NCBI GenBank assembly: GCA_951804945.1
Contig: OX638151.1
Location: 92,070,001 to 92,134,000 of the forward strand
Origin: Podarcis cretensis
Taxonomy: Eukaryota
DNA length: 64,000 nucleotides
Direction of reading: 5' to 3'
Part shown: one piece after another, positions 3,690 through 41,442 of the stretch
Position numbering within the stretch: the first letter of the stretch is position 1
How the letters are laid out: the number at the start of each line of letters is the position of its first letter
The notes under the pieces: generated by a model
Told to the model about the DNA's origin: nothing
Seen by the model: the letters and a program-made list of their open reading frames with translations, nothing else
The model's database searches: none
Program-made: the position numbers and the translations under genes

Positions 3690-4869
3690 GTTCGTTAACA
3701 TAATCATCATCATCATTTTTTATTTGTATGCCACCTTTCCACAGTTAAAAAAAACCAATGCTCAAGGCGGCTTACAGCATGACAAGATTTACATAATTAC
3801 AAAAGTCATAAACAATAAATAAACCACATCTAATGAGATGAGATGATATTGAGGGCCTAGATTCTATGAATGGGTGGGTGAGAATAGCTGCATATTTATA
3901 GACTATGCCAGTTATTTGAATTTTTTAAGATATCAAATGCCATGTGATTGACAGTAGATCGTATATGTGTTTACCAGTGAGTGATTCACACATTGTAAAT
4001 TAATGCTTCTGTGTGAAATTTATGTAGGGAAAATACATATATTTCTCCAACCTTTGTGTACTTTTCTTGACCGTGCCACAGTTTCAGACAGCCTTAGGGT
4101 TCACCCACACTTCTATATGCTATATGCCCTGCTGCTTTCCTCTGGAGAAATTGGCGGTTTAGTGCTGAAACAGAACAAACAGCAAAACCTGATTGCCATT
4201 TGTTCCGTTTAGCACTAAAGGGCGGGTTTTCCAGGGGAAAGTGACAGGGCAAAGCTGCTTGGATCCATGTTTTCCAGGCATGGAAACTGAATTAGCTAGG
4301 CAAGCAGAAAACTGCTTGGACCTGTGCTTTCTAGGCACAGGACAAGTATGGATGAGCCCTTACTTTGGGGAGGGGGTGTTTAAGACTCAACAAGGGAGTC
4401 CCAACAGGAGTTCTGTAAAGTTGCAACAGGACTGGCAGTGATCTTTGGAAGCATTTTATCTCAATGACTGTTGAGGGATTACTTCAAGCTTTACTGTTCA
4501 TAGTGCATGTCATTTATGTTTGTGATGTTTATAGTGGCACTAGTGATCATACTATCCTGGTTACCTGATTAGTTCCCCACCCTCAAGAATCCCTTGTTGT
4601 CAAGGGATGATTATTATTATCAAGGGGTTATAATTTAGGCTGCAATACTATTATTTTCCAAGCTGGTGGTCTTCAATAAACTCACCAGCTAACAAGCTCC
4701 AATGAAGAATAATGTTTAATAAAACATCTCAAATTGCAAAAGGATGCATTTTCCTATAACATAATGTTTCTCCTTGATTGAAATAACATCAACCAAAATC
4801 CTAGTTAGAAGCCACTCAAAGACACGGATTTTAAGAACTTCTGTTTGTTTGTTTATTTGTCTTCTGCAG

Positions 4870-6344
4870 GCAATCACATTGAGCAACTTCAGTCAACTTA
4901 TGTTAGTTCTCATCAGTTCCAGCAAATGTCTAAGGACTTTCAGGCCTGGTTGGACAAAAAGAAGGAAGAACAGAATCAGCCTTGTCCCATCTCTACCAAG
5001 CTGGAGTCTCTGTGGACATTAATTGATGATCAGAAAGAGTTCAAGGCTGCCTTGTCTGACCAGACTGGTTCTTATGAAAAAATCATCACAGAAGGCGAAA
5101 GTTTACTCCAAAAGACTCAGGGAGCAGAGAAGGCTGAGCTGCAGGCCCAGCTGAACTTGCTCAGAGGTAACTGGGATGAAATGAACAAACAAGTTAAAGA
5201 AAGGCAAGATAAATTAAATGATTGTTTGGAAAAAGCCCTTAGATACAGAGAGCATGTAGAAAACCTACAACCCTGGATAGCGAAATGCCAAAGCAATACC
5301 TCTCAAATAGAAATGAGCATAGATCCTGTTCGGCTAGAGAATTCCATCGCTCAGGTGAAGAGCTGGCAGAAGGACCTAGATAAACACCAAGGGTTGGTGG
5401 AGCTATTAAGTAATGCAGCTGAGACATTACTCAGTGCCTGTCAGACAGACAAAGACATTATTGAAGAGGAGAAGACACTGCTGATCCAGAACATGGATAT
5501 AGTCACAGAACAACTGCATGCTAAGAGAGATGGTCTGGAAAAGATGTCTCAGAGACTGAAAGAGTTTCAAGAGTCATCAAAGGACGTTGAAGAGCAGCTG
5601 AAGAATGCCAGAGAACAGCTGGAAACACACGATTCTCTCAAACCCCAGACTTACAGTAACAAACACTTGACGATTATGCAGGCTCAGCAGAAAACACTCC
5701 AGGCCTTGAAGGCTCAAGTGGACCTTACAAAAAAGCTGGCCCAAGAACTGGTGGCAGATGCTACAGATTCATCAGGTGTCTCTGACCTCTTGTTGCAGGC
5801 AGAAACATTAGAAGAAGAATTCAGCACCATCAGTCAGCAGGTTGAAGATAAATGTTCATTCCTGGAGACTAAACTCCAGGGAATTGGCCATTTCCAAAAC
5901 AGCATCCGAGAGATGTTTTCTCAGTTTGCAGAGTTCGACGATGAATTGGACAGCATGGATTCTGTGGGTAGGGATCTTGTCACACTGCAGTCACAGCGAA
6001 AGGATATAAAAACTTTCCTGAAAAAGTTGGAGGAACTCATAACCAGTAATGAAAATGCAAATAATACCTGCAAAATGATGCTAGCAAATGAAGCTGAAGC
6101 GTCTCCAGATCTTGCAGGTATAAAAAGGGACTTGGAGGCTTTAAATAAGCAGTGCAACAAGTTGCTAGACAGAGCAAAAGCCAGAGATGAACAGATTGAA
6201 GGGACTATTAGCCGCGTTGAAGAGTTCTACAGTAAACTAAAGGGGTTTTCTAAACTGCTTGGGGAAGTTGAAGAGCATGAAGAGTCCCAGGGTTCTGTTG
6301 GAATGGAAATTGAGACGATAAATCAGCAGCTGAACGTATTTAAG
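4870..6344 (+). CDS. DST: DST large rod exon, 1475 nt (GNHIEQLQS...QQLNVFK), phase 1-0
   Basis: cttctgcag|GC ... TTTAAG|gtaaga; ORF 4845..6371. Confidence 0.95.
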
Positions 6345-17014: not shown

Positions 17015-18301
17015 ATGGGGAAGCCACTGAGCAGGCCAGACTGTTTACGCCAGAATCCTCCTTGTGTAGGAAAAGGTGATGAAGAAGAAGAGGATATAAA
17101 TATTGAGGACTGTTATGTTCCCCAGAGGTCAATCTATGACACAGTGCGGCTGAATGAACAGATTGACTCAGGTTCTAAAGGCAGCCTCTCCTCCAGGCAT
17201 TTCTCAGATCGGACTTTGCCGTATAGTCATAGAACACTGGACCTTAGTACATTGTGCTCCAATGGTGCCCTCTCCTCTTCTAGTGTCTTTGAACTCAGAG
17301 GACGGGAAGCCAATAAGCTAGATGAAAAAATGATCTTTGATGCCCTTAAGCTGAACAGTGACATCATTCGAACAGCTGGCTTGCCCAAAGCAAAGTATCA
17401 CACAGAAAAGAAAGAACATAGGAGATCCTGGAGGATGCTTGTTCCACCAAATTTTGCAGACTATGCAAATAAAAGTGAGTGTTCACTTGCTGGGACTGTT
17501 GATGTGTCCGACTTAGCAGCAACAGGCCAGGTCAAATGTGGGACTAGTTCTCTAACTTCCGAAGAAGACGACTCTGGTCTGTGCAGTCCTCCAGCAGAAA
17601 GAGAAGAAAAACAAGATGTGCTAGAAGGGGAACAAACTCAATTTAGGAGCATATCTTCCATAGACGATAATCAGTTTGTAGGTAAATTTGGATCATTTTC
17701 TCCTACCATTTCTAGTAGTGAACATCAAATTTCATTGCTTACCTCCAGAAGTGCCCCTACCAGTGGACACTGTCGAGTAAAATTGCAGAATGCTTCACAT
17801 ATAGAGCAAGAACCTTTCTGGAACTATGAGGGCAACCAAGGGGAAGGAGATGGACATTGCAGTCCACTGACATATTTGAAAGAAGACCTCTTAGCACATC
17901 CCCAATGGCTCCTGGATGGTGAGAGGGAACATGATATCACTTTAGACAAAGAGGAAGTGAGGAACAGCGCTGAAGTTAATGAGCCATTAGACACCCAAGA
18001 CAGGATGATTGAAAAGGACCTCCTGGATATTGCAACTCAGGATATAGATATTTATGATGATGATGCAGCTTTACATGCTAATGATACGGACTTAGTAAAA
18101 TATGTGATTTTGCATGAAACTGAGGAAAGTAATATGGCCCATATAAGTGCAATAGAAATGTCCTGTCAGGCTTTAGAGGCTAATAATACCACATGCTGTC
18201 AAAAAGCAAATCCAATCAGCGCTGAATTCAGCTTTTGGACTACAGGCATGCAAATAGAACAAACCTTGGATACAGTGTGCAATGGCATGTTGTCTTATAA
18301 G
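17015..18301 (+). CDS. KIAA0754-like alternative first coding exon of DST (429 codons, MGKPLSRPDC...MLSYK)
   Basis: Long stop-free ORF in AT-rich intron; Kozak gcagaaATGG; in-frame TAA at 16970; donor AAG|gtaatt in phase 0, matching the next DST exon. N-terminal blocks resemble human KIAA0754/MACF1 internal exon as recalled. Confidence 0.82.
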
Positions 18302-19662
18302 GTAATTCCAAACTTAAATGCATTCTTTTCATGCTGCAGGGTGGGTTATTTTTTAATTTTTTTTTTCTTCTGTAATTGCATCACGAATGCTTATGTTTAG
18401 ATTTTGCTAATCTACCCAAAGAATTCCTTTAGAATCATTTGCCCAACAAGTTATTAGAAGGCAGAAATTGGCGAGATGGTCACTTCAGTAAATTGATTAA
18501 GGGCAGTTTGTGACAGGGTTGATTGCTTCCAGCTGTTTGGTTGCATGGCTATTTATTGTCCAGATGGTGCTTGTTACCCTTTATTTGGAATGCGTCCACT
18601 AGGCATTGATGTTCAGCACCCCCTCCTCCCCTCCCCTCAAATTATGTTTCAAGCAGCCAATGCCATTCAAGGGCAGATAGGCCTTCCCTATTCAGATTTA
18701 ACCAGATTTCAGCTGCAGCCATATACTGTATACACTTTCATGGGAGTAAGGCCCATTAAACCCGATGGGCATGCTTCTTCTGAGTTGACACGTATAGGAT
18801 TGCACCGTTCATCATAAAGGTATACACAACGATGCTCAGATTGCTGCGGTTTCCAAAGTACACAGATTAAAGGCTTGTTGCACGTACTGAAATTATTTCC
18901 TTGCATCTTCATGCCAAAAAGTAGTCCTAAAGTTGTAGGGGATTTTTTTACAAGGGATCTTGTAACATTTACTGAGCGGTGAATGAAGTAAGGAAGTAGA
19001 AAACAGCTTTGTAATAAGCATGGGGAGCTTGTGAAGTCTTTAATTTAATTTTGTTCTTTTTGTTTTTGGTCACTCTGATCTGGTTGTGTCTTGAGTTATT
19101 TTAGGACTTGTTGCTAAGCTGTTCTGGCAAACTCTAGCCTCAAGTCCTACTTTTGTGAGTAGGTATGTGTATCTAAACAACAAATCAAGGGGAACAACTC
19201 AGTTTGGATTGCTATGGAATTGTCTTAAAAATATATGAACATCTGAAATAGAAGAGAGTTGGACTGAAGTACTGAATTACTAGTTCCATGGGCCTAAACT
19301 GGAGCAGGACTTGTGTTTCTCACACAGCAACCTCAAAAACTTCTTTTGAAAGAGAGGGGAATTTCAAAAGTAGTTTATGGAACCTGGGGTGTGTACATGT
19401 GCCTGCCTGTTTGATTGCCAAAGATACTACTGAGCTAACACTTGGGTATGTGTAAATTAGCTTTTGCATCCCAGCCCTTGTTTATTTCTCTTAAGTAAAG
19501 AGAACTTGCCCATATTATATATTATTTTGTGGGAAAGGTAAGACCTGTTTGCTACTTGGTTCCTCAGAACTCTGCTTTATAATGCCCCCCCCCCCCTTAA
19601 CAAATCCCACAATGTCCTGCAAATAGGTAGTGCTATTAAGTGCATCAAAAACAGCATTATAC

Positions 19663-22366: not shown

Positions 22367-22528
22367 GTATTCGAGAAGGAAAAGATTGAGCCACTACAGG
22401 TTAAGCAACAGGAGGTAAATTGGTTGGGTCAAGGCCTTATTCAGAGTGCTGCTAAAAATGCTAGTACTGATAACCTTGAGCGTGATCTTGAGGATGTTAA
22501 CACAAGATGGAAAACTCTCAACAAAAAG
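22367..22528 (+). CDS. DST: DST exon ([11 protein letters not shown]...KTLNKK), phase 0-0
   Basis: Long pyrimidine tract, ctgaag|GTA ... AAAAAG|gtatgt. Confidence 0.93.
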
Positions 22529-22904
22529 GTATGTTAGTTGTATTTGCACTGTTGTTTACCTTTTTAGTTTGCTGTTGTTTTTGTTTTGCTCTTATTTCTG
22601 ATTTTCACTACAAAGTAGTACTATACATTATTGTAGTAGACTGCATAATAAAATGCACAAAATCCCCAGTCCAGAACTCCATGTGTGCTCTGGTGCTTAT
22701 GTAGAGCTCCTACAGAAGCAGACTACCCTTTGTCACATGGGTACCCTGTCATTTTAATGTCCATGGAAAGAAACCTGTAGAAAGTCAAAAGCCTAAAGGA
22801 AATAGAGGATTGCAAAACATAATTCATGGTGCTTTCTGTGTCATGCTGATTGAAGCAAAATGCCTACTCAACTGTCTTCAGCCCTGTTTAGGGAAGTTTT
22901 TAAT

Positions 22905-22998
22905 AACTGATGTTTTAATGTATTTTTAATCTTTCGTTGGAAGCTGCCCAGAGTGGCTGGGGAAACCCAACCAGATGGGCGGGGTATAAATAAAAAAT
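22905..22998 (+). mobile_element. L2/SINE 3' tail
   Basis: ggaagctgcccagagtggctggggaaacccaaccagatgggcggggtataaataa followed by a microsatellite. Confidence 0.55.
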
Positions 22999-23004
22999 TA
23001 TATT

Positions 23005-23091
23005 ATATCATATCATATCATATCATATCATATCATATCATATCATATCATACTATACTATACTATACTATACTATACTATACTATACTAT
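23005..23091. repeat. Compound (ATATC)n(ATACT)n microsatellite
   Basis: Direct reading. Confidence 0.95.
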
Positions 23092-23404
23092 TAATGTCCA
23101 AATAAAGATGCATGCATTCAAGAGGCACATGAAGTACTTAGGCTTCCCTGGGGATTATCCGTAGGCAGGTCTACCTCACACTTTGTTCACCTATGACCTA
23201 CTGCTACAAAATGTTGTATTGTTCATACCTGTATTAAGACAATTTTAATTATTTGCCGAAGTGCACAGAATGTCACTCAAGTCAGTGAAGAGCTTCATAG
23301 TTTAGGAGTTGCTAGCCTTAAATTGTTCTTATTTTCCCTAGGGGTTGTTTGATTGACTGGAGAGATGGAAAGAGGTATTGTGGGAAGAGGATAATATTTA
23401 CAAT

Positions 23405-23444
23405 GTTTTGTTTTGTTTTGTTTTGTTTTTTTGTTTTGTTTGTT
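23405..23444. repeat. (GTTTT)n tract serving as the acceptor pyrimidine tract
   Basis: Direct reading, immediately before exon 23447. Confidence 0.85.
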
Positions 23445-23446
23445 AG

Positions 23447-23617
23447 GTTGCTCAAAGAGCAGCCCAGTTGCAAGAGGCACTGCTCCACTGTGGGAGGTTT
23501 CAAGATGCTGTCGAATCTATCCTTAGTTGGCTTATTGACACAGAAGACCTTGTGGCTAATCAGAAGCCTCCATCTGCTGAGTTCAAAGTAGTGAAGGCCC
23601 AAATACAGGAACAGAAA
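23447..23617 (+). CDS. DST: DST exon (VAQRAAQLQ...QIQEQK), phase 0-0
   Basis: tgttag|GTT ... CAGAAA|gtgagt. Confidence 0.93.
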
Positions 23618-26061
23618 GTGAGTGGAAGTTATTTATCTATCTTTAGATTAATTATATTTTCTCTGTCACCTGCTCAGTGGGGTATTTTAAACTGTTTTTA
23701 AAGCTGTGTGTTAATGTTGTAACCCACCCGGGGCCTTAGGATGAATAGTGGGCAATTAATAACAGTAATAACATGTGACGGCCTGGATAACAGTGTGGCT
23801 GAGTGTGTATTAGACATGCGCTATAAGAGGTGCAGTTGCAAAAGAACCTGAAAAAAATACCTTTCCATAGTCTCTGTCATCCCATCACTTAGGATGGTTG
23901 TCATGGATGCTTCTGTGGGGGATGTGTTTGGCTTTTTTCAGGGGAAGGGCAAATTTTCTCAACCCAATCTGTGAAATTCTCTTTAAAGATTTGCCCTTTG
24001 ATACTTTCATTTTGGAATTCTCCACTCATTTTAACAGAGGCATCCAGACTGTAGCATATTAGTGGGACAGGATCTGTTAGTCCTGCCTTTTACTTGTATG
24101 GCTCGGATTCAGTGGTAGACAGCGGGTTTTCCTGGGGGAAAGTGGCTAGGCAAGCGGAAGTGTGGGATGAGCCCTAAATTGCTTTGGTTCATTCAATGAG
24201 AAAAGTGACCAAGAAATATAACAAATAGTTGGTATGTAAATTTATATCCAGCTCTTCTTTCATCATGGAACTCAATGGCGTTCCCAGGTAGCCTCCCATC
24301 CAGGCATTGATTGCATCCTTTGCCCGGGGAAATGTGGTTTTCTTCACTTCTTTGGGAAATGTGGGGAGCTGGTGCAGACTGGGAGGGACAGATGCCATGT
24401 ATAGCACAAACAATCATTTCATTGGACCAGTTTTCTCTATATATTGCAAGGAAAACTCTGGAATATCTGTGCTGGTTCTTGGCATCATTTCATGCACGTG
24501 TACATTTCACTGGATGCACATCAAAAACAATTATTTCAAGGATCAAAAGCAATCTGATGTTTGAAAAGACATCACTGATATTGTGAAAAGGGGCAGGGGG
24601 AAGAACATTGTAGAGCTACTCCCTTAAGTTGAAATAAAGTTCAAAATTTTGTCAGGGCTTCAATCCTCCTTCATCATTTTGACAACCCTCCACCCCACCC
24701 CTTCTCAGCTAATCTCTTTTTCCCATATATGCCATTCAGTGTGGATTTATACGAGTTGCCTATACATATGGGTTAGCAAGGAATGAAATCTGTGCCTGGT
24801 GTCAGCTTCTGCTCCACCCCTTACTTCCTGACTTCCGTCTCTAGAGTTTTGTAGAATCTGTTTTGATTTAGGGTAACATCTTGGTGTGCCTGTATCTTCA
24901 GTTAATAATGTCAAACACCCCTGCTTCAGATTGTTCAACAATTGTTTGTAACACAGTTGCTGATGAATTGTTAGACCCTCACTTAAAAAGGGGGGGGGAG
25001 AGAAGGTTCATATTAAATATTGAATTGGCAGTTGTGGAGTAAATACAGCACATCAAACTCTGTAACCAGATCCATAATTACTTTCCTGTTCAAAATAAAT
25101 GTATGAGCAAGGGAAGAGCAGGTCACAGCATGCACAGCATCAGAGAGAAGTTGTGCTCTCTGAGCAGTCTTAACAAAAGGCAGTAGGAGAGAGAAGGGGG
25201 GATTTTTGGCTGAAACATAGAAGGCAACCCTCAGGGAAGAGCACTGCATGAAGCTTAGTGAATCAAGTCCTCAGGTTGTCTGGCCAAAGTGAGTATGCAA
25301 AGTTGCAGCTGCGCGCAACATAATAATCTCCAAATGATCATATGTTTGTACTGAAAATTTGGGACAGAATCCAGAGAATGTTATAACATGTTTGATTCCC
25401 TATTAAAATAATTTGGTCTTAGGCGCATCATTAAGCCCTGAATTGTGTTCATCTTATTGAATGCGGCCACAAGTGTTTCTAAAGGTGAGCACTATATAAA
25501 CAAACAGATATTTCTCTGGATTGCAGTGGATAGTTGCAAACATCACCAGCGTATTGAAAAGATGGGGAGGGTTCTTATGTGAAGTGGAAAATTTCCCATC
25601 TTTTCTTTTTCCAAAATGGAAAAGCTTCCCCAAAAGTTCCCAGCACTGTCATGTGTTATAAAATGTCCCACTGTGATTCCCCCCTCTCCCTGCACATGTC
25701 AACATCATACCTCATATAAGGCATATATATCTGTAGCCCTTCCAGAGCTTCCAGGATAGCATTGAAAAGAAATCTGAATGAAAACATTTGGAAGGATGCT
25801 AGACCTTTACAACTGATGCTAAGATTGGCACAGTTTGCTCGCTCTCATAATGAAATTACTTATTTATGCAATTTATGGCACTTGCATTGTAATACTGCTG
25901 GCACCCTCACAATTTCCTGCCATCTCAGAAAATTGTTCCCTTAAGCCTGCCTCTTTTTGCCAGTAAACAAGACCTTGAAGAATCTGCCTCTTAATCTTTT
26001 TACAGCCTTGTAGTGAACAGTCATTTCCTGGCAATTTGATTTTTGATTATTTTGTCTCCAG

Positions 26062-26228
26062 CTTCTCCAGAGATTGCTGGATGACCGCAGACCCACTGTT
26101 GAACTAATCAAGCGTGAAGGGGAGAAAATTGCAGAGTCAGCAGAGCCCGCTGATAAAGAGAAGATCTTGAAACAGCTGAGCCTCCTGGATAGCAGATGGG
26201 ATGCACTGCTTGATAAAGCAGAAACAAG
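26062..26228 (+). CDS. DST: DST exon ([10 protein letters not shown]...DKAETR), phase 0-2
   Basis: gtctccag|CTT ... ACAAG|gtacct. Confidence 0.92.
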
Positions 26229-26636
26229 GTACCTGAAATGTTTGCATTCACTTAGGGGTATAGTAGGGTGTACTCCTTGATACAGCATTAGAAACTAATG
26301 TGGAGCTATAGCAACATTTTCATCCAGTTTCAGATTCGCATTTGAAGCTAAATGAGAAAATGGCTCTGAGTATATTACAAGTTTTATTTTTAGAAATTTC
26401 AGTGAAATAATATGGGGAAATCAGTATCACATAATCACCCGTTCTTGTAGTAAAGTGGATGTCTCCCATAATCTTCCATTTATGGGAACTACTTTTAGGT
26501 GTAGTTCAGAGATTTTCAAAGTAATTCATTGAACATAATTAAACCGAAGTAGTTCTTTCCAAGCGCTGGTTTTAATTTTTTAGTATTTCATACATCCCTC
26601 ATCCCACAAAATGTGCTTTGTTTTCACATATTGTAG

Positions 26637-26796
26637 GAATCGTCAGTTGGAAGGTATCTCAGCTGTAGCACAGCAATTCCATGAAACTTTAGAACCACTG
26701 GTTGAGTGGCTAACCATCACTGAAAAGAAGCTTTCAAATTCAGAACCCATTGGAACACAGGCTTCCAAACTACAACAGCAGATTTCTCAACATAAA
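26637..26796 (+). CDS. DST: DST exon (NRQLEGISA...QISQHK), phase 2-0
   Basis: ttgtag|G ... CATAAA|gtaaga. Confidence 0.93.
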
Positions 26797-27025
26797 GTAA
26801 GATCTTAATGTGCCTTTCATTGCGGCAATTATTTTATGATTTGTAAACCAAAAGTGGAGTTTTCCCCCCAACACATTTTTTTATTACTTTGTTTATATTC
26901 TTCTTTTACCATCAAAGTTATATTCTTTTGGTTGTTCTTGAGTTGTTTTCATATTTGGTTTTATGGTTTCTTCTGTTTGCTTGTTTTTCTTTTCTTTTTC
27001 TTACTGCTTTGAAAACTTCATTTAG

Positions 27026-27352
27026 GCCTTTGAGGAAGACATCGCCACTCGCAACAAAAATTTGGAGCAAGCTATTAATATTGGTCAGGCTTTAAAGGCA
27101 TTGAGCTCCAAGGAAGATAAGGAAATGGTGCAGGAGAAACTAGATTCTTCAGAAGCCCAATACATTGAGATTCGAGAGAAAAGTGGCAGTAGAGCTCAGC
27201 TTCTACAGCAAGCCTATTGCAATGCTCAGATTTTTGGAGAGGATGAAGTTGAATTGATGAATTGGCTGAATGAAGTACATGAGAAACTGAGCAAACTGGC
27301 AGTCCAAGACTACAATACTGACTTGCTTGTGAAACAACAAACTGAAATGCTG
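27026..27352 (+). CDS. DST: DST 327-nt exon (AFEEDIATR...QQTEML), phase 0-0, probable cassette exon
   Basis: catttag|GCC ... ATGCTG|gtattt; 109 codons, one spectrin-repeat length. Confidence 0.9.
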
Positions 27353-27602
27353 GTATTTCCATTTATTTTCTGTTGTTTTTATTTTACCATTTTTAGCATT
27401 ATTTTGTATTACTTCTCATATTTTATTTTTTTATTGTTATAGTCATTTAATCCTGTATCCTGTTCATTTATTTTTAAGCCTTTATCCTCCCCGCACCCTG
27501 CTCCAATTCTCAGAGAGAATAAGTGGCTGCTTATAGACTTACAGTTTTATAGATTTTAAATGATGACTTCTCTGATGATAAAAGCATTCTAAAATTTTCT
27601 AG

Positions 27603-27687
27603 GCTCTCCAAGAAGAGATTCTGCTCAGAAAGCAAAATGTTGATCAGGCTATACAAAATGGTTTGGAGCTTCTCAAACAAACAACAG
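27603..27687 (+). CDS. DST: DST exon ([10 protein letters not shown]...LKQTT), phase 0-1
   Basis: ttttctag|GCT ... ACAG|gtgaga. Confidence 0.92.
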
Positions 27688-27957
27688 GTGAGAAAGCCAT
27701 GAGGAAATTAATGATTTATGACAACAAAGACAAGTAAAGTAGAACTTTTGGGGGCTCACTGACTCCTACTGGAACCTTTTTAAAGCTATTTTTTTTTTAA
27801 AAAAAAAACTTTTTTGTTCATAAGTAATGGGATAAGTAATTATGGGTGCAGTGTGTAATAAAGTTTCACACCGTAATACTATACCTGTCCACTCAGAGGT
27901 AAGCATGGCTGAGCTCAGCAGAGCTTACTCCCAGGTATGTGAAAAGAAAGCAGTAAT

Positions 27958-28110
27958 GAGAGTTGGTGTAGCATAGTGGTTGAGAGCATAAGCTGGGAGT
28001 CCTCAGTTCAAATTTAACCACAGCCATGAACTTCCTAGGTGACATTAGGCAAACCATTAACTCAGCCTCAGCCTTCCTGCTGTAATATTCTACTGGTCTA
28101 CTGTGCAGAG
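27958..28110 (+). mobile_element. Degenerate tRNA-derived SINE head
   Basis: A-box-like gtgtagcatagtgg, B-box-like gttcaaat, followed by cagccatgaac...ggtgac; similar to the element at 10668-10875. Confidence 0.5.
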
Positions 28111-30249
28111 CTATTGGGAAAATTTAGGGCTGATAGAAAATTTCTCAGAAGAAAATTTCTTAACATACGTTTGAACAGTTGGAGAATTTCACTCTACTGC
28201 TGGGGAATATATGGTGAAATAGCATTCCAGATTCATCCTCTTTGAATTTTGAGCACACACTGGATCCAGTTTTAATATTGTTGTGGGGAGCAATAGTCTT
28301 GGCCTCTGCTCCTTCCCATTCTCCTCTCTTAGTCTACTGCTTTCTTGATCAGCCGAGAGGCCATGGGATAAGGTGATGTCGTGAGCCAGCACAAGTGGTT
28401 AGCTGCTACTGTTCTGGAGTGGAGCGTATTCAAAATCCCGGGGCAATACTGCAGGTACTGACCCAGTGTTTTTTGGCATGAGCTCAGGACTATGGCTAGT
28501 GATCCCGCAGTGAAGGTAAGAGTTGTTGTCCCATAGAACAGAAACTTCAATTTGGGAAAGGGAGAGAATGTGAAAAAATGCTACCAGCCCTTGACAGAGC
28601 ATATTTTCCTGCTGAAAATTGGGACTACAAATCCCAGAATGCCTGACAGGAAACTAACTTTTCATGTGTCGTTTCTGTCAGGGAGAGGGAAGGCCTTATC
28701 CTTTATGGAAATAGCATATAGATCATTGCTTTGCCTCTGGAAATTATTTCTCTTAGAGTTCCCATTCCAGGTCTCATCACAAAATGTTCTGCTAGGGACA
28801 AGACCCCCAAATTTTGGGGAGTCTTAGGGTTCAGGGATTTGTAAATGAAGTACAGTGGAGGGTGGTAAAGAAGCTTCTTAAAATTTTGAACTTAACACTA
28901 AAAGCGGCTTGATACTTTTTTTATAGTATTCAGTTGAAACTCTTGAAAAGTTTGGACACCTTTTGGAGCAAACAACAGTGTGATCATTCACTCCTAACTT
29001 GAATATGCATGGTTCTGGAAGAATTTGATTATAGTTTGAATAGTTCCTTATTTTATGATTTTTTAGTAGCACTTCAGCATTTTAAAGCAGTTTGTAATGT
29101 GTGGTATCATGATGCATGTCCATTTGGATCTCAGCCAGTAGATGTAAAGAAGGAGTAAATAGACTGCTTAAACAGCTATATAGAAGAATGTTGTAGTAAA
29201 TGTTTAAAAAAGAGTTTTTTTAAAAAAAAATGGACTGAGTAATTAGTCTACCTATTGCTGTGAGAGAGGCTGCTTTCCCCACAGTGGACCTAGTACTGTG
29301 GGAAAGTTGCATTCCAATTGCACACAGCATGTCTGGCTTGTAGACCAACATCTTCTAAATTTTCCAGTCTCTAACTCCATGAACTCTCCAAGATATACAT
29401 AGTTTGGGGCTGGGAAGAAGGGAGGGAGGAGAGAAGGAGATGAATTACAGAATTAGAACCTGAATTGTTCACTGAAAGGTAAACATATAGTATAACGAAC
29501 AGTGCAGTTTCAATTCTGACTTTTACTCTCTGTATAACGGCAATTGCATGGACATAGCCACTCAAAGAGGAAAATGTTCTTAATTGTAATTAGCGCTGTC
29601 AGTTGATTCATTACCTGCCTTATTTTAATGGATTAAATTTAATTACTGTACATACAACAAAATCTCAATATTTCATGTATATTGGAGAAAAGACATAGTT
29701 GGTTGTTTTTTTAAAGATATAGTCAAATAAAGTTGCCATGCGGTGTTAGAAGGAAAGGCCATCCATCTGCTCCTTAGCTTGATATGCTAGCACGTTATTC
29801 CCATATTCAGAGAGACCGATTCTGAACTTCAGAGCAGGCAAAACCCTGAGCCATGAATACTGAGCTCTGCCTACCATACTGCCTGTCACCTACTCAGAAG
29901 TCATTAGGGCTCCCAGCTTGTACTGATGACTTAATTGGCGTGAGCAAAGATGGGAGTTGTGGTCCAACAACATCTGGATGGCCACAGTTTCCTCATTCCT
30001 GACCTAGAGAATCCTGATTGGCTGAGGCTTGACCTAGATTTATTTTGGTGGAGCCCAATCTAAAATAAGACAGGGATGGGGTGTGGTGGGCTAAAGTTGC
30101 ATGTGCACAGCGAAGCTTCCATGCTTAGAAGGAAAACTAGCTTGATCAGGATGAAATATTTGTTCTATTTTCACCTGTGGACTTCAACCCTAAAAACATC
30201 CTGGTTGCTTTAGATGATTAGTATGTTAAATACCCCTTTTGCATTGCAG

Positions 30250-30491
30250 GTGATGAAGTTGTCATAATTCAAGATAAATTGGAAGGCATTAAAACAAGGT
30301 ACAAGGACATAACTAAGCTGAGTTCTGATGTGTCCAAGACTATAGAACAGGCTCTACAGCTTTCTGGTCAGCTGCAGTCAGCTCATGAGAAACTCTGCAC
30401 TTGGCTGGATAAAGTTGAGGTGGAATTACAGTCGTATGAAGCGCAGGTCCCCAAAGGTGAAGAGTTAAGTCAAGCGCAAGAAAGACAAAAG
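30250..30491 (+). CDS. DST: DST exon ([10 protein letters not shown]...AQERQK), phase 1-0
   Basis: cattgcag|GT ... CAAAAG|gtgagt. Confidence 0.93.
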
Positions 30492-31070
30492 GTGAGTGTA
30501 AAATGCTGTGTTTGCTTGTGGACAGCCTTCCGGGGGCCACATGCCAGTGGGTGGAGCAACAAGCGTGACACTTCCCTTTGTAAAGCTACACAGAAGTTGG
30601 GACATTTTTGCATATATTTACACCTCATGCACATCCCTTCACCAGCTAAGCAAGAAGCATTATCATATTTCAAGAATGCATTTCAGAGTAGGGGAGGGAG
30701 GTGGAGAGAGAGAAGGGGTATTGTTCTTTTGCACTATCACCTTTTATTAGTTTAGAGGTTTGTGTCAGCATCATGTAGGTAGGTCATTTGTTTATTTATT
30801 TATATTGATAGTGTGAGAGGTTAGGGGGTCCCAAGCGTGATTGTAACAAAAGCAAAGGTAGCCAAGTTGAAAAGAGCAATATTTATAGCTTTGGCTTGCA
30901 GCTGTAGCATTTCAACTATGTACTCTTAAACTAAAGGGAAAAAAACAACTGAAGATGGGAGAAGGAGAAAACCAAAAAAGCCCCATGGGTGGAACCTTTG
31001 AGCTGTGCAGATTTTGTTTCTGCGCCAATGTGTTATTTTTAATTTGTTTACCTTAAATATTCCTTTTTAG

Positions 31071-31277
31071 GCACTGCAAAAAGAAGCAAAAGATAATAAA
31101 AGTTTACTGGACACTCTTAACGAAGTCAGCAGTGCTTTGCTTGAACTGGTGCCATGGAGAGCAAGGGAAGGGATAGACAAAATGATCACAGAAGACAACG
31201 AACGGTACAGATTAGTGAGCGACACTATAACTCAGAAAGTGGAAGAAATTGATGCTGCCATTTTCAGATCGCAGCAG
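31071..31277 (+). CDS. DST: DST exon ([10 protein letters not shown]...IFRSQQ), phase 0-0
   Basis: ctttttag|GCA ... CAGCAG|gtaaaa; translated by hand. Confidence 0.92.
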
Positions 31278-34200
31278 GTAAAAATGTCCCTAATTCTCAT
31301 TTCAGTCTATGTGTGATAGGGAAAAAATATGTATATTTATCTGTTCTAGGAATACATCCAGGTGTATATCTGGGAATCCCTACCAAAAGAAAAGGCTGCT
31401 GTTCATATTATTGGCACATGCATGCTACGTCTTTGCAAGAACTGGGGCCAAACTTGAAAAGAGCTTGGTCATAGTTGTCAGACATGAGTCCTAGACCAAA
31501 GCAAATCCAGTCATTGTTGTAGCCATCTGTCTTCTAGTTGACACAGAAATTACAGATCAGTCTCATACTGAGAGGCATTACGAGTGGCATCATGCAGTGA
31601 TCTCAGTGGGAATTTCAGTACAGAAAGAATTGTAAACTCAAACCCTGTAACTTATTATTTATGCTGCTATGTAGGTCATATATCAGCTTGTGTAAATGAA
31701 TGGTTGAAGTAAAGATGTGTACAGTAGCCAGTGGATGCAGTTTTGCAGGAAATATAAACATTATTTGCAGTTGTGGGCAGCATTAAAATGGGCTTAATAT
31801 ATATACACATCAGTGTTTTGTTCGAAGGTTTTCTTTTTCTTTTTTAGAGCTTCTAATTTGTTGGCCCTTTAATTTAGTATGACTCAGTTTATATGCCTCT
31901 CTTTCAAAACAGAATGTTCAGGCCAAAAGTACCTTCTCTGATTATAAATGTGAGATGACAGCAAATGTTTGTGGCTTGTTTCAAATAGATTAAACAGTGT
32001 GATAAAGAATTACTCATGAAAAACATGGAGAAACCTCAGCCCACGTAACTTGCTTTTCAGTCATGATTCATAATTAAAGAATAAGATATGACAGCTTATC
32101 CATTAAATTTCACCTTCAGTTGGAAGTGACTCTGTCACCACAAACATGTAAATTATCAACTTTCTCAAGCAGCTTAATAGGATTATTTCTTGTTCAACCA
32201 GCATATGTTGAAAGCATCAGACATAATGAAGAATTCTGATGACCTCTAAAGGTCGCATGTGCTCCCACCATCATGAGTGGGTCCAATAAAAGTTATCCAC
32301 CTTATCAGTTTCTCTACCGCTTTCTTTTAGGAACATGATTCACATTGAAACTTGTTGTGTATATTTATTTGTCTGTTTAAACTAGACCATTCAAGTATTG
32401 TGCTTCACGAGCATACCAATTGCTCTACAGTAGACTTCTCTAATTTGGTGCCCTCAATATAATTTGGACTCCAGATCGCAGCAGCCCCAGTTAGTATGGC
32501 CAGTGATGGAAACTGTATTTCAAAGCATTTGGAAAGAACCAGGATGGGGAAGGCTCTCAAAGTTCTCCAAAGCTCTCGAGTTCAGTTGAGAACTGGTCGG
32601 TGAGCCCAGGGGAAGTAACAAAGTTGAGGATGGAACATTTGCATATGACAGCAGTGCCTAGTGGGATAATAGACCCTGGCTTCCCTTCCCCTGCGCCATC
32701 CACATGTTGAAGGGGAAGGTCTTAAATGAGGAGTCTGCTTTGTGTGTAGGCTCTGCCTCTGTAGAACCCTTTGTGATCAGGGTGCTAATATAGGTTTATA
32801 CAGTGGGCTCTCTTTTCTTTGGGACCTTCCCCCAGAGTGTGGAAGTCAGGGTACAGCCAGTAGTATTGTCATGGTGGAGGAAACTCAGTGGGCATGAACT
32901 TGCTCTCTTCTCCCATGCATGTTCGGAAAATGATATTTGAAAGAAATCCACTAGTGGTCTCTGAAAGGATAAGATTTTCAGGCGGGGGGGGGGGGGATAT
33001 GTGTATGCTATACTCACGACTTGCGTTCGCACAACTGGACTGTCAACTTCTACCAAGAAGCAATTCCTATTTTGCTGCCCATTGATTTTAATGCCATTGA
33101 TCTAGTCTAACTAAAAAATAATCTCTCTATTGAGGCAGGGAAATAATCTTAAAGATGGACAAGAGCAAGAGGTGTTTAAAGAAAAGCAAGTATTAATATT
33201 ACCTTTGATGTTTGTGAGAATTTTGACAGAGAATTCTGGTTGAAGTATAAAGTATAATGTGGCTCTGACATTTCCTGCTTTCTCTTTGTAACACTTCTGA
33301 AATAAGCTGATTTTGATATACTCCTCAGTGTCACAGAGAGCCCTAGAATTTATTAAAATAAGAATAAACGGTGTGGGTATTATAAGAAGCTGCATTATGT
33401 TCAATCACAGCAACAAGCCACCTAGCCTCACACTCTTAACTACTAGCACTGATTCCAGGATGCTGTGCTGCTGACCTGAAAGTCATTATTCTTCAACAAA
33501 ATAACTTCAAAGGGAAACTTTAGCAAGCAGCTGCTGAACAAAAATTCATCAGCAAGCTTGAAGCTACTTGTTTCAATTTCATTCAAGGCGAAGTTTTTTT
33601 CTCCTCTTACATTAAATTATCATAGCAAAGGGAGGAAAATTATATTGTTGCATATAATTTGTGAATGATCACTGTGTTTATTTCGTATACTTTTGAGCTT
33701 TGCACAGAGACCTCGCACTTGCTGTTCAAAGATATTTGGCCCACTGCTTACAATCTTTACCTTTCTGACTCTGTATGTGTTTGACAAATGCCACTGAAGC
33801 ATGTTGCACTATTCTGCCTTGCCTTACCTGTCCCTTTAAGAATACCCAGATTTCTCTCATCCTCCATCATATCTCTTAAGTGAAGAGGCCACATCTCCTC
33901 TTCCAGGCCTAAATGCACAAACTGTGGAAAGCTTATGGTGTAGCAGGGAAGTTAACGGGCACTATCTTGTTGCCATTGACACCTTGATCGCTTCATCCTC
34001 TATCCCCTCCCAAAGGTGTTGCAACACACGTTCTTAGCTATGTGCAACTCCCTTAGCATTGCAGCTTAAAATACCCACCATTCTAGAACTGGCCTAGAGG
34101 CAGCTTTGCAATTTAGGGTTATACTGGTTCTGATATCCAAAATATAAACAGGTTCTCATAAACTTGGGGCTGTGTAAATGTAACCAGTGCAGTCTTACCA

Positions 34201-34337
34201 CTGAGCTATGATCCCCACCTCTCAATTTTATCAAATGTCTTTTCTGAAATATCTTTTCCATTTAAATCCTCTACCTATCCAGTTGGAGTTATTTTTTTTT
34301 ATGAATTGCTGTTTTATTTTTTCTGTGTTTTCTTTAG

Positions 34338-34457
34338 TTTGATCAAGCAGCCGACACTGAATTAGCCTGGGTTGAGGAAACAGAAAATAAACTGATGTCT
34401 CTGGGTGACATTAGGCTTGAACGTGACCAGACCATTGCTCAGCTACAAGTTCAAAAG
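34338..34457 (+). CDS. DST: DST exon (FDQAADTEL...QLQVQK), phase 0-0
   Basis: tctttag|TTT ... CAAAAG|gtgaac. Confidence 0.92.
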
Positions 34458-34602
34458 GTGAACAAATGTGATTCCATCTGTAATGCAATAATTAATGGCC
34501 ATTACTTTTTCTGCCATGATTTAATTTTCAAACCATTATAGTGCAGGCTTTTGCTCTATGTCCTCATATTCCTAATACCAGAGTATTGTATTATGTAATT
34601 AG

Positions 34603-34710
34603 GCATTTACCATGGAGATTTTGAAACACAAGGATACAATAGAAGAGCTTGTTGCATCTGGGGATGAGATTATGAAGACATGCACGGAAGAGGACAAACA
34701 AACCATGAAG
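34603..34710 (+). CDS. DST: DST exon ([10 protein letters not shown]...DKQTMK), phase 0-0
   Basis: taattag|GCA ... ATGAAG|gtaatg. Confidence 0.9.
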
Positions 34711-34854
34711 GTAATGGAGCATGACTTGCACTTGCTTACCAATAACTTTGAAAATCTGCATGCATAAGGGATTCCTAAGCCATGTTGCTGGAACCACTAA
34801 GATTATGTAAGAGGGGCTGAAATGTGCCTTGAAAGCTTAAGCTGCCTCAAGTTG

Positions 34855-35148
34855 GTTAAACTATGGAACTTGCAGGAGGCAGTGATGGCCTCTAACTTGC
34901 ATGGCTTTAAAAGAGGATTAGACAGATTCATAGAGGATAAAGCTATCAATGGCTTTTAGCCATAATGGCTATGCTCTGCGCAGTTGGAGGCAGCGATGCT
35001 TCTGAATACCAGTTGCTGGAAACCAGAGGAGGGGAAAGTGCTCTTGTGCTTGAATCTTGCATGCTGGTTTTCCACAGGTCATTGTGAGAACAGGATGGGG
35101 GACTAGATCTACCATTGGCCTGATCCAGCAGGTTCATCTTATGTTCTT
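34855..35148 (+). mobile_element. CR1 3' end fragment
   Basis: Same 3' motifs as 21560-21860 (ggattagacagattcatagaggataaagctatcaatggct...tgatccagcagg...ttatgttctta). Confidence 0.75.
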
Positions 35149-35438
35149 AAAACTTACTTGAAATGCCTGTTGAAATTTTAAAAGGCCTTCCGTAGACACT
35201 CAAAATTCAACTGGAAAGAGGGCCTGCCTGATATCAACCAGGAAGGAGTTCCATAGAATTGGACCCAGAATGCTGAATCCACAACTCCTTGGTGGATATG
35301 CCTTCCCCAAGCACCTGCCTACTTGCCCCCTAAGGAGCTAAAAGATTGCCCACTGTGTTATATAGCAAGACTAGTCACCTGCCACAATGTAAATTTCTCC
35401 AACCAAATGCTGGTGTTTGTTGGTAATTTCTTTAATAG

Positions 35439-35657
35439 AAGAAGCTGGGAGACCTCTTGCAGAAGTATAATACACTCTGTCAAATGAACTCTAAGAGGAA
35501 TCTGCAGCTTGAAAGAGCTCAATCTCTAGCCAGTCAGTTCTGGGAGACTTATGAAGAGATTTGGCCATGGCTAACGGAAACAAAAACAGTAATATCACAG
35601 CTTCCAGCACCAGCTCTTGAATATGAAACCCTAAAGCAACAACAAGAAGAGCACCGG
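35439..35657 (+). CDS. DST: DST exon ([10 protein letters not shown]...QQEEHR), phase 0-0
   Basis: ttaatag|AAG ... CACCGG|gtaagt. Confidence 0.92.
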
Positions 35658-37162
35658 GTAAGTTTGCAGTCGTCTTACAAAATGCTGTTAATTGCAAAGG
35701 TCAACAGAAGTGCAGCTCTCTCTTTAGCATGTCACATTCACCAAACCAACCAATATCAGATTTTACATATTTTTTACTCGCTGTTAACAACAACCCAAAA
35801 TCCATTTTTTTATGAAACAAAATTTTACTATTTTAATATAACCACAAGTTTAAGATTATTCTCAAGGCGGAGCAGTCATTGTGAAAAGCGGATTAGTGAA
35901 TTAATTCACTAATTAATCAATTAATTAATTAATTCACTAATTAATTAATTAATTACATTACATTTTTTTTTAAAGGAATGAAAATGTTCAACAGTATCCA
36001 AAATAGTTGGAATGTAAAGCAAGCTGTGGTGTTCCCTAAGGGGAAAAAAATCAAAAATCCACAGTTGGGAAACACCTTAATTTGGACCAGCCAAAATATC
36101 ACAATCTTTTGAGTTCTCCAGAACTCTTAATCAGTCAGGATGTTATGCAAAGCAGAGAATAGGGAAAAGGGGGCAGGGGACAGCAACAAACAACAAAAAT
36201 GGTTGCAGCCACTATGTCTGCATTTAGATTCTGTTTTAAGAGAGATTGCAGGCTGGATTGGACTAGGTGCTGCAGACTCAGTCTCTATCCAGGATTTTGG
36301 GGAAAGAGGTGATGGCTGACCCGAATTCTGGAAACATAAAATCCAGCAGTTACTCAGTTCTGCCTCCAGCCTTAACAAACGACAGAGGTTCCTGATTAGG
36401 CAGAGTGCAGCAATAAAGAGAAACATGGCTGTCTTCATATTAGCAAAGTTGGAGATTAATTATAGAGAGTGTTCTGGGTAGAAAATTCAGCTAAAGCCTT
36501 ATTGAGTAGTAGTGAAGGCACACTGAATACAACAGAAACTGGAGACAAACAAAAGAAAAAGTACCCAGAAGCACCTTCTAAAAGTGAACTTTAAAACTGT
36601 AACAGTTTGTTCCGTTAAGTTATGCTTTAAAAGGAGCTGAACAAAGTGCAACAGTGTGTTGCTTCTATTTTAAAGCACAGCATTTTCTTCGAGTCTCAAA
36701 AATATTGGTTGATCTTAATATGATTCCTTGATGTAACCTTGGAGGTTTGATTTGCTTGCTTTTGTTACAGCACTCGAGCCCTAGCGAGCTATTTATAATC
36801 ATATTTAAACAATTTGGCATCTTCTGGAATGCCATTACTTAATAAATCATTTCGAGTGCCGGACAACTGGCTGAATACTTTTGACTAGTTATATTGTTTT
36901 GCTTCCCAGATTCTGTGCTTTTAAATATCTTGGTTGACTAAAATGTTGTTTTTCTAGTATAAAGGAAACATTATATGCTTAGAGCTGAAAACACAACAAT
37001 AAGGCTAAATGGATATATCCAGTATGAGTTATACTTTGTCCTAGCATACAGATGGGATTGTTTATTTAGACCACCTTGCCAGCTGAACGTGTTGGACGCA
37101 CAGACAGCTGGAATGTGGCGATGTAAGGATTAGATACTGATAAGTGTTTTGCTTTGCTATAG

Positions 37163-37366
37163 CAACTGCGAGAGTTGATTGCTGAACACAAGCCTCATAT
37201 AGATAAGATGAATAAAACTGGACCTCAGCTTCTGGAGTTGAGCCCGCGCGAAGGTTTTTCAATCCAAGAGAAGTATGTAGCAGCTGATGCCCTTTATAGT
37301 CGAATTAAAGAAGATGTCAAAAAGCGAGCTCAGGCATTGGACGAAGCCATTTCTCAGTCTACCCAG
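37163..37366 (+). CDS. DST: DST exon ([10 protein letters not shown]...ISQSTQ), phase 0-0
   Basis: gctatag|CAA ... ACCCAG|gtaaca. Confidence 0.93.
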
Positions 37367-38400
37367 GTAACATTATTTATTAGAAGAGCAATTAGATTCC
37401 AACTGCAGGATGTTGTTATCTTAAATCAATAGACTTTAGGTACATAGTGGACTTGCCAAGACACTACGTCACCAAATATGTGAACACCCCCATCATTGCA
37501 CATAAATTTGCTCTTCCTATCTGTTAAAGAATTAAGGGCATTGTATTTTCGTGAATCAAACCTTCCCCGTGTGCCATCAAGTTCCTTGAAGGAAAGGCAT
37601 GATTAAAAAATGGAAATATTCTTATCCTATTTGGGAATTACAAAATTGTTTTTCCCTGAATAATAAGGCCAGTATCCTACATAATAGTGATTTGTTCATG
37701 CATGCACACAATCAAAGAGGCTAACTGGTGTCAAGACAGCCCAGGGTTTCTCCTGGTGTCTTTGCCAAAAATAGTGGTGGTGGGACAGTGACTGACTGTC
37801 GGTCAGACTTGGCATGAAGCAACTTCCAACTTTCCAATGTAATGCTACTGCATTATAGTTTTCTGACCCGACCTACCTAGGAGCTAGATGCTTACGTTCA
37901 TACCATGTCTATTAATCACTGCCACATAATGTTAACAGTAATTAACCAATGCAGTAGGATATTTAGTAGAAAAAACTTATTAATAATGTGAATGGCTGAC
38001 ATTTTTTAAATGACATAACACATTGTGGCTAAGGATAGGTGAAAGAAAAAATGTGTTATTCCCTCTGTGTTATAAAACCATGTTCAGGAAACTTAATACA
38101 TGGTATTAATACATGGTGATGATGAGACAGTTAACAATTGGTCTGTACTGTAAAGCTGCCTAGTTCACTAACAAGCAGATATGATTTGGACACCTTGATT
38201 GGGAAGCATAAATTTTGCTTAAACTAAGATCATAAATCTGTTGAGAAAGACAAAAAATGTCACAAAAATAGTTAAGGATGCTTTAAGCATGTTCATTCAG
38301 CTATAACAGGGTTTTTTCTGGTTTGACCCAATTCCTTTTAAATGTTGCTAATCTGTCACTCACCCAGTCTTCTCTCCCTCCTCCCCATTTGTCTGCATAG

Positions 38401-38632
38401 TTCCATGACAAGATAGATTCGACCACTGAGAGCCTAGAACGCATTGTTGAACGTTTGAGGCAACCGCCTTCCATCTCAGCTGAGGTTGAGAAGATTAAAG
38501 AACAGATTGGTGAAAATAAGAACGTGTCTGTCGACCTTGAAAAACTTCAGCCAGTCTATGAAACCCTCAAGCAGCGCGGGGAGGAGATGATTGCCCGTTC
38601 AGAAGGCGCTGATAAGGACATATCTGCTAAAG
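38401..38632 (+). CDS. DST: DST exon (FHDKIDST...DISAK), phase 0-1
   Basis: ctgcatag|TTC ... AAAG|gtagac. Confidence 0.93.
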
Positions 38633-38727
38633 GTAGACTTCAGAATTTTACATTTCAAAATAAATGCATGAACAAGTTTCCACAAGCAGAACTTTATATA
38701 CCTGCCCGTGTATATTTTGCTTCCTAG

Positions 38728-38954
38728 TGGTTCAGGATAAGTTGGATCAAATGGTCTTTATGTGGGAAGACATCCATACCCTGGCTGAAGAAAGGGAGGC
38801 CAAATTGCTTGATGCAATGGAATTAGCAGAGAAGTTCTGGTGTGATCACATGGCTCTCATAGCCACTATTAAGGATACGCAGGATTTTATCAGAGAACTA
38901 GAAGGAGCTGGAATTGATCCTTCAGTGGTAAAGCAACAGCAAGAAGCAGCAGAG
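38728..38954 (+). CDS. DST: DST exon (VQDKLDQMV...QQEAAE), phase 1-0
   Basis: ttcctag|TG ... GCAGAG|gtaggt; follows a 95-nt intron. Confidence 0.93.
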
Positions 38955-39454
38955 GTAGGTGAAATGTAACTGTTGGGCTTAGACTACTGTCCTGCTCCCA
39001 TATATTTCTTAGCAATCATGTATAAGCGTGTTAGTGGTTTGGACTATATTGTTATGCTATGTTTAGTGGAAATTCCTTTACAAATCATCATGGCTGGTTC
39101 AGATGTAACAGGAAACCATTGTTTCCAGCTATGTGAATGAGCCACACTGAACCACCTCCTCCCGTCTCCAGTGCAAGGTTCTTCACAGCTCATTCACATT
39201 GTGGGAACTCCTAATTACCCATTATATATGGACAGGACTAGATATAGAGTCCAGCACCATCTGTGTGGATTTATTTTGCTTCTTTAAGAAACATAAATCC
39301 CTGTGTGTAACAAATGCATAACTACAGGTAATCATGGCCTGCATTTTTTTGCCTTCCTGCACTAGTCAGTAATGCCCTTTTTTTCTCTTCAGAGTCTATG
39401 CACTGCTAAAAGAAAAGACTTGCATGGGGGAAAATGCATTTGAAGTAATAATGA

Positions 39455-39630
39455 AGGGTGATGGCTGTGTTCTACCTCCTATGTCAAAGGCAGTTTGCCT
39501 CTGAATATCAGCTCCTGGGTATCACAAGTGCTGTTGTGCACAGGTCCTTGTGGGCATCTGGTTGACCACTGTGAGAACATGATGCTGGACTAGATAAGCC
39601 TTTGGCCTTAACCCAGCAGGACTCACCGTT
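39455..39630 (+). mobile_element. CR1 3' UTR fragment
   Basis: ggcatctggttgaccactgtgagaacatgatgctggactagat, shared with the other CR1 copies. Confidence 0.65.
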
Positions 39631-40714: not shown

Positions 40715-40837
40715 ACCATTAAAGAAGAGATAGATGGGTTACAAGAAGACTTAGATGTAGTGGTAAGCCTTGGCTCTGAACTGATAGCAGCATGTGGAGA
40801 ACCTGACAAACCATTAGTCAACAAGAGCATAGATGAG
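40715..40837 (+). CDS. DST: DST exon ([10 protein letters not shown]...NKSIDE), phase 0-0
   Basis: tttttag|ACC ... GATGAG|gtatga. Confidence 0.92.
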
Positions 40838-41340: not shown

Positions 41341-41442
41341 CTAAATTCTGCTTGGGATGCTTTAAACAAAGCATGGAAAGAACGTGTTGACAAGCTTGAG
41401 GAAGCAATGCAAGCGGCTGTTCAGTATCAAGATGGATTGCAG
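41341..41442 (+). CDS. DST: DST exon ([10 protein letters not shown]...YQDGLQ), phase 0-0
   Basis: aatgcag|CTA ... TTGCAG|gtaagg. Confidence 0.92.

Follow-up and report, generated by a model that had tools for sequence, protein, structure and literature searches.

The dystrophin products Dp71, Dp116 and Dp140 arise from internal promoters, with the actin-binding domain lost and the C-terminal binding end kept. BPAG1a3/b3 and MACF1a3 come from the two genes that are considered here, dystonin (DST/BPAG1) and MACF1, and begin with an alternative first exon that provides Gly2 and nearby cysteines; the BPAG1a3 lead is reported to mediate cortical targeting. In the accessible parts of two papers this lead is called a 'conserved' or 'putative' myristoylation motif (PMC3352950, PMC6975176). 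An earlier sequence-only reading of the DNA analysed here had taken BPAG1 isoform 3 as the precedent for a lipid-modified start; however, the a3 lead is an unrelated sequence at the gene's 5' end (snake record P0418: Asn3, Cys5, Cys7), and the precedent is reduced to an analogy. In type-3 isoforms, CH2, the plakin domain and the entire rod come after the lead, whereas the internal exon described below drops these and about 4,250 residues of the long form, and its Cys10 and Cys17 lie farther from Gly2 than Cys5 and Cys7 of the a3 lead. The dystonin gene would have two independent leads of the Gly2/Cys kind. In Drosophila, the Shot D-type likewise starts internally, losing the actin-binding domain but retaining the C-terminal binding end, according to the accessible part of a review (Voelzmann 2017). 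In contrast to both the Dp products and the Shot D-type, the locus studied here has a long dedicated exon with a predicted lipid anchor and three further motifs, and no homology to either is claimed.

The exon is the DST paralogue of the first exon of MACF1 isoforms 6/7 (KIAA0754, UniProt O94854). The two copies share about 50-60% identity over 160 aa and identical first 11 residues, and the MACF1 exon precedes the same FQKE exon and occurs in spliced long (3,514 aa in human) and exon-only forms, but the DST exon encodes about 430 aa vs. about 1,000-1,400 aa in MACF1. Named KIAA0754 records matched the DST exon with E about 1e-40. Within the Podarcis genome, the MACF1 twin was found on the minus strand (G000:C8:35054339; E = 1e-25), where its frame is open for 1,166 codons and its first 13 residues equal those of the DST exon; the FQKEQVDPLQ exon and the one after it follow at a distance of 11 kb (C8), a matching intron position, and no upstream neighbour exon of the twin turned up in the 20 kb examined. 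An AG with a pyrimidine run is located 50 nt before the twin's ATG. Identity between the DST and the MACF1 copy rises at the ATG, from 0.30 over the preceding 30 nt to 0.90 over the following 30 nt, and 11 of the first 21 codons are changed, 8 of them synonymously. In a hagfish record (P0256), spectrin repeats come after the same lead and DST-like residues are interspersed with MACF1-like ones, which argues that the exon predates the split of jawed and jawless vertebrates. The human cDNA FLJ26213 (Q6ZP91, P0146) ends in about 110 residues that match no orthologue, and the clone may be chimeric; we take its tail to resemble an out-of-frame mitochondrial fragment.

The exon had been regarded as hidden in the sequence-only reading. 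This does not hold, as it is annotated in UniProt O94854 (MACF1 copy), in many DST gene models and in a 2017 review. In the accessible part of that review, the exon, taken here as the same exon, is flagged without a function, and a spliced and an exon-only product are both left open (Voelzmann 2017). Thus, exon and isoform are already known from O94854 and many DST gene models, and what is new is the lipid-anchor reading. No function or lipidation of either the DST or the MACF1 exon copy was found in the open literature, and no lipid anchor on the exon or isoform in the open full texts, although subscription papers may hold one.

The internal exon and the isoform it heads

The window, i.e., the whole stretch of 64,000 nucleotides from Podarcis cretensis that was analysed, holds 3' spectrin-repeat exons of the dystonin gene on the + strand, and 30 of its segments align to a snake dystonin record with 61-98% identity. 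About 19 kb downstream of the window there is a GAS2/GAR exon (G000:C3:92153209). An open frame starting at 17015 sits inside a 16-kb intron between the exon end at 6344 and the exon start at 22367 (see Table 1), and its nearest relatives among the matches listed in protein searches are those of lizards. Long isoforms skip this exon, as 6344 is spliced to 22367 in a related lizard (4+4 RNA reads).

Table 1. Features of the dystonin window around the internal first exon (positions in the window)
Feature	Positions	Strand	Details and basis
Upstream canonical spectrin-repeat exon	4866..6344	+	5' end approximate; phase-0 donor 6345
Short in-frame upstream ORF, 7 codons, ending in TAA	16949..16972	+	TAA 14 codons 5' of the start
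Internal first exon, coding part, 429 codons	17015..18301	+	open frame; phase-0 donor GT at 18302
Met1-Pro8, MGKPLSRP: predicted NMT recognition site, GKxxS class	17015..17038	+	Gly2 acceptor, Leu5, Ser6, basic residue 7
Cys10, candidate S-acylation site	17042..17044	+	340/340; invariant in alignment A2
Cys17, candidate S-acylation site	17063..17065	+	336/340 at the ungapped position; invariant in A2
Motif 2, Ile30-Asp51 with Cys33; predicted helix 40-51	17102..17167	+	likely partner-binding
Motif 3, Lys101-Leu113; predicted helix 104-111	17315..17353	+	conservation, AlphaFold
Motif 4, Arg136-Pro144, RRSW core	17420..17446	+	conservation
Donor read-through to TAG; stand-alone 461-aa product possible	18302..18400	+	like MACF1 isoform 7/KIAA0754
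Downstream shared exon (VFEKEK...)	22367..22528	+	phase 0; takes either donor in frame
Shared spectrin-repeat rod, 26 matched coding segments	22367..63219	+

Positions 17015-17065 of the + strand translate to MGKPLSRPDCLRQNPPC, in which Gly2, Ser6, Arg7, Cys10 and Cys17 sit where the sequence-only reading had placed them. The ATG has a good initiation context (G at -3, G at +4). An in-frame TAA occupies 16970-16972 and no in-frame ATG occurs from there to 17015, by which any in-frame N-terminal extension is blocked in the lizard. An AG dinucleotide lies 2 nt before the ATG, and 11 AGs occur in the 165 nt upstream; since the only one in frame with the phase-0 upstream donor runs into stops, the exon cannot be an in-frame cassette via those AGs. 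We are highly confident that translation initiates at 17015 in the Podarcis lizard. Three very short upstream ORFs (16814, 16866, 16949) occur within 205 bases of the start codon; with a long 5' leader, they could modulate translation. At its other end, the exon terminates in the phase-0 donor AAG|GTAATT (18301/18302), which joins in frame to VFEKEK at 22367, and the junction residue is identical in orthologous models and spliced contigs. ATTAAA hexamers are located at 18755 and 18866, beyond the read-through stop. The exon frame is intact in the lizard, and 160 aa are 94-96% identical to those of other lizards. No Pfam family was assigned to the exon, a PDB sequence search returned no match at E up to 10, and an ESM Atlas search gave a best score of 0.78 and no usable lead.

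The promoter was not located: neither a TATA-like box in 16001-17015 nor a CpG island at the exon was found. A mild CpG rise is present at 15600-16000, and a perfect (TAT)17 microsatellite at 16268-16317, 700 bases 5' of the start codon, lies in the likely promoter region. Intron repeats (9400-11950, 7200-7300, 21750-21830) collect very deep RNA piles from other copies, with depths of more than 1,000 at 10051-10639 within interspersed repeats.

A protein search with a turtle model listed matches to DST proteins of about 2,300-2,750 aa that begin at the motif Met. Named short-isoform models occur in mammals, birds, turtles, squamates and fish, many of them gene predictions. Among Logan proteins drawn from four clusters, 11 distinct ones of 2,636-2,692 aa start at the motif Met and cross the VFQK/IFQK junction; two further full-length Logan proteins are extended upstream, and two others begin within the exon. 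None of the contigs carrying the 11 ORFs is longer than 10.1 kb (P0376 occurs on 81 contigs), and the matching coding span in the Podarcis genome exceeds 66 kb, strongly suggesting that the contigs represent spliced mRNA. All three short isoforms scanned against Pfam contained spectrin, EF-hand and GAS2 domains, while the actin-binding CH and the plakin domains that mark a full-length spectraplakin were absent from all three. The tails of the short isoforms keep a SKIP motif, which is read here as a microtubule tip signal on the basis of the SxIP label given in the accessible part of Voelzmann 2017. Four RNA runs from a related lizard, each sampled to 6-13%, showed an exon depth of at most about 0.5 (zero in one run), and no joint from the exon donor was among the joints listed. 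In the three paired runs, the few reads in the two inner bins of the exon were all first-mate-minus, as is the majority at the upstream coding exon. Spliced contigs and gene models from other vertebrates, together with the three Pfam scans, bear out the short isoform of the sequence-only reading: an isoform of about 2,690 aa headed by the exon is real, lacks an actin-binding domain of its own and keeps the GAR end.

Conservation of the first residues and their fit to NMT

The bare pattern MG-x3-S-[KR] occurred three times in the window (2,655 Met, six frames), compared with a mean of 0.7 (maximum 3) over 40 block shuffles; when two Cys were required in the first 20 residues, one occurrence was observed vs. 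a mean of 0.05. The bare motif is therefore near chance, and it is conservation that raises it above chance. The conservation set consisted of 348 distinct listed records from four protein searches, three of which were word-index searches that contributed the best 120 of 216, 194 and 154 matches, respectively, and the motif count was anchored on MGKP. These records are kin by descent and hence not independent events. The motif was present in 340 of the 348 (337 MGKPLSRP and 3 MGKPLSKP). The remaining eight were two unrelated weak matches and six models starting inside the exon or with another lead; no point change at Gly2 was among them. The sequence-only reading had named conservation of Gly2, Ser6, Cys10 and Cys17 as a check, with loss of Gly2 as grounds for refutation, and this conservation was confirmed in the motif-bearing listed records: Gly2, Leu5, Ser6 and Cys10 were found in 340 of 340 and Cys17 in 336, with Arg7 in 337 and Lys7 in 3, the only substitution within residues 1-8. 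Lys3, Pro4 and Pro8 are likewise invariant, and Asp9, Leu11 and Arg12 nearly so. In both DST and MACF1, the motif stays invariant all the way from hagfish (P0256) to mammals. A HMMER search of 50%-representatives, i.e., without the word index, recovered the motif in 43 of 50 and, besides two unrelated weak matches, only vertebrate-type ones; no invertebrate homologue is therefore claimed.

The motif-bearing records begin at the homologous Met in 291 of 340 cases, and the other 49 have an in-frame upstream extension of 5 to 234 residues. Three spliced contigs (P0386, P0387, P0402) are also extended upstream, and unspliced ORFs of the same cluster as P0386 and P0387 have a nearly identical upstream lead. 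In some mammals, an in-frame ATG is present about 38-62 codons upstream of the motif Met. Judging from these extensions, some mammals may make a longer, non-myristoylatable form, a possible switch. The idea that the exon is always entered via an acceptor about 40 nt upstream was dropped, as the three spliced contigs carry 41-62 codons before the ATG. In P0253 and P0261, a different lead is joined into the exon interior and part of the exon is skipped, by alternative splicing or as a prediction artefact.

The textbook consensus for N-myristoylation, PROSITE PS00008, wants a small uncharged residue at position 3. The sequence-only reading had matched the start to a myristoylation consensus, which stands for the GKxxS class but not for the textbook pattern: Lys3, present in all homologues, breaks the latter, and Pro4 is atypical. 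In the accessible text of Riviere 2021 (bioRxiv 10.1101/2021.06.22.449375), a GKXXSX rule is deduced for Lys3 proteins, a basic aa7 matters, a hydrophobic aa5 makes up for a missing Lys7, and pockets 4 and 5 accommodate all side chains; among the aa7 substitutions in its GK section Lys7 is the tested helper, and Arg is absent. An acidic NMT pocket for aa7 is described in the accessible parts of Dian 2020 (PMC7048800) and Kosciuk 2020 (PMC7044312). The exon agrees with this rule through Ser6 and has both residues that can offset Lys3, a basic residue 7 and a hydrophobic residue 5. Like the GK substrates ARF6, GLIPR2, the HPCA/NCS1 family and TMEM106A/B, it combines Gly2-Lys3 with Ser6, and it shares the hydrophobic residue 5 with ARF6 and TMEM106; position 7 is Lys, His or Gln in those substrates and position 4 is not Pro, whereas the exon has Arg7 and Pro4. 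As known GK substrates break PS00008 as well, Lys3 lowers efficiency but does not exclude the site. In the accessible HeLa table of Thinon 2014 (PMC4200515), all five MGK rows with Ser6 respond to NMT inhibitor and none of the six without Ser6. That Gly2 is truly N-terminal is supported by the upstream stop, the lack of an in-frame cassette route, the onset of paralogue identity at the ATG, and the start at this Met in 291 of 340 records and in the 11 spliced contig ORFs.

Pro4 is the weak point, as it looks rare among substrates for the prefixes searched: six MG-x-P prefixes gave no match in the 169-protein table of Thinon 2014 (PMC4200515), and twelve in the enrichment table gave only MCAM, which is not a predicted substrate. 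Direct evidence was sought in published data. GKPLSR was not found in the six supplements of Thinon 2014, and the sole listing of MACF1 in them is as a post-caspase substrate (Gly5087). O94854 has no unique peptides in the partial file of a 2026 myristoylome table (PMC12955691); low expression could account for either absence. The accessible parts of PMC4550359 (including three supplements), PMC7531007, PMC4171495 and PMC8689648 contained nothing relevant to lipidation of the exon. Di-myristoylation on Lys3 was set aside, as Gly-myristoylation dominates on GK peptides in the accessible text of Riviere 2021 and Dian 2020 (PMC7048800). Lys3, Pro4 and Pro8 are more invariant than NMT requires, which hints at another binder. 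Judged from its residues, the start is probably an NMT substrate of the GKxxS class, with Met removed and Gly2 myristoylated with the aid of Leu5 and Arg7.

A conserved Cys near Gly2, as looked for in dual acylation, is present: at least two Cys occur within residues 2-20 in all 340 motif-bearing records, with an extra Cys in nine. If Gly2 is myristoylated, it appears fairly likely that Cys10 and Cys17 are S-acylated as a second anchor, but they could instead serve another purpose. Among the fish copies, the eight that diverge most keep residues 1-8 fixed, gain a Cys adjacent to Cys17 (CC pair in seven) and have a spacer of 32 to 44 before the next motif. Fixed start, gained Cys and variable spacer are what would be expected for a position-locked, cysteine-assisted N-terminal signal. 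These copies (P0266-P0270, P0273, P0275 and P0276, one named Astyanax) are fast-evolving; none of the seven of these eight records that were scanned showed a spectrin domain, and the copy is possibly a stand-alone lipidated protein.

Beyond the start, motifs 2-4 are roughly as conserved as the first motif, with D32, Y34, P36-Y41, T43, N47, E48, I50 and D51 as the invariant columns of motif 2. AlphaFold predicted residues 1-160 to be mostly disordered (pLDDT 58, pTM 0.20), with pLDDT 73-87 over residues 31-50. Motifs 2-4 look like partner-binding motifs; targeting may accordingly need proteins besides the lipid, and an indirect link to actin is possible.

Competing explanations and their meaning for DST and MACF1

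In the preferred explanation, a vertebrate-wide internal first exon heads a short dystonin consisting of spectrin repeats, EF-hands and the microtubule-binding GAR end. Gly2 would be N-myristoylated and Cys10/Cys17 possibly palmitoylated, by which the isoform would hang microtubules on a membrane; motifs 2-4 may bind partners and help choose that membrane, with the remainder of the exon as a long spacer. With modest confidence, we lean towards short dystonin being such a membrane-microtubule linker with a lipid-anchored start. Alternatively, the isoform may be real and not lipidated, residues 1-17 being a protein-binding or N-terminal recognition motif (e.g., a Gly-starting degron) and the partners of motifs 1-4 providing the targeting. 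This would be in line with the invariance of Lys3, Pro4 and Pro8 (and nearly of Asp9, Leu11 and Arg12) beyond the needs of NMT, with the equal conservation of the motifs at 30-51, 101-113 and 136-144, with the near absence of Pro4 from the accessible Thinon tables for the prefixes searched, and with the lack of a myristoylome match in the available parts of the Thinon supplements and the PMC12955691 table. However, the sole change tolerated in residues 1-8, Arg7/Lys7, falls on the very residue read by the acidic pocket of NMT, Ser6 and the hydrophobic aa5 fit the GK rule, and divergent copies gain Cys, and we consider a non-lipidated isoform unlikely. It is also conceivable that the protein is lipidated but that its main product is the exon alone (461 aa here), a membrane adaptor without the microtubule-binding end and no tether. 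Past the donor, the frame continues until a stop that is followed by polyadenylation-like hexamers, mouse MACF1 isoform 7 is a named record (P0016), exon-only ORFs make up most of the best 120 near-length matches, many of which may be genomic, and the accessible part of Voelzmann 2017 leaves this option open. Full spliced ORFs on many contigs (P0376 on 81) and a phase-0 donor whose position is shared by mammals, birds and squamates make such a main product quite improbable.

The two other explanations concern the exon itself. If the exon were an internal cassette of long dystonin, or if an upstream in-frame ATG were used, Gly2 would not be N-terminal. An AG 2 nt before the ATG, one pigeon model (P0410) with the exon in an internal position and the in-frame upstream Met in 49 of 340 records point in this direction, but the single in-frame AG among the 11 upstream runs into stops, the extensions are of uneven length (5 to 234 residues), a stop lies at -14 codons in the lizard, and paralogue identity begins at the ATG, rendering this very unlikely. 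A chance motif in an exon that is silent in the Podarcis lineage would agree with the near-chance frequency of the bare pattern and the very low RNA depth in the related lizard; yet the 429-codon frame and donor are intact, 94-96% identity to other lizards is maintained over 160 aa, and the few inner-bin exon reads in three paired runs are all first-mate-minus. We regard this explanation as extremely improbable.

If short dystonin is a lipid-anchored tether, mutations upstream of the intron would spare it, whereas those in the distal rod, EF-hands or GAR end would hit it; from the gene structure, lesions 5' of the intron spare the isoform and 3' lesions do not, and DST/MACF1 alleles would be read differently. 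Only tentatively, and with considerable doubt, we suggest that both vertebrate spectraplakin genes may produce, from an internal promoter, an actin-free microtubule tether of about 300-390 kDa with two lipid anchors, present since before the hagfish split, which could be a missing variable in DST/MACF1 disease and knockout phenotypes. Spectraplakins are taught as actin-microtubule cross-linkers; if the explanation favoured here is true, a lipid anchor in place of the actin-binding half would let cells fix microtubules to membranes.
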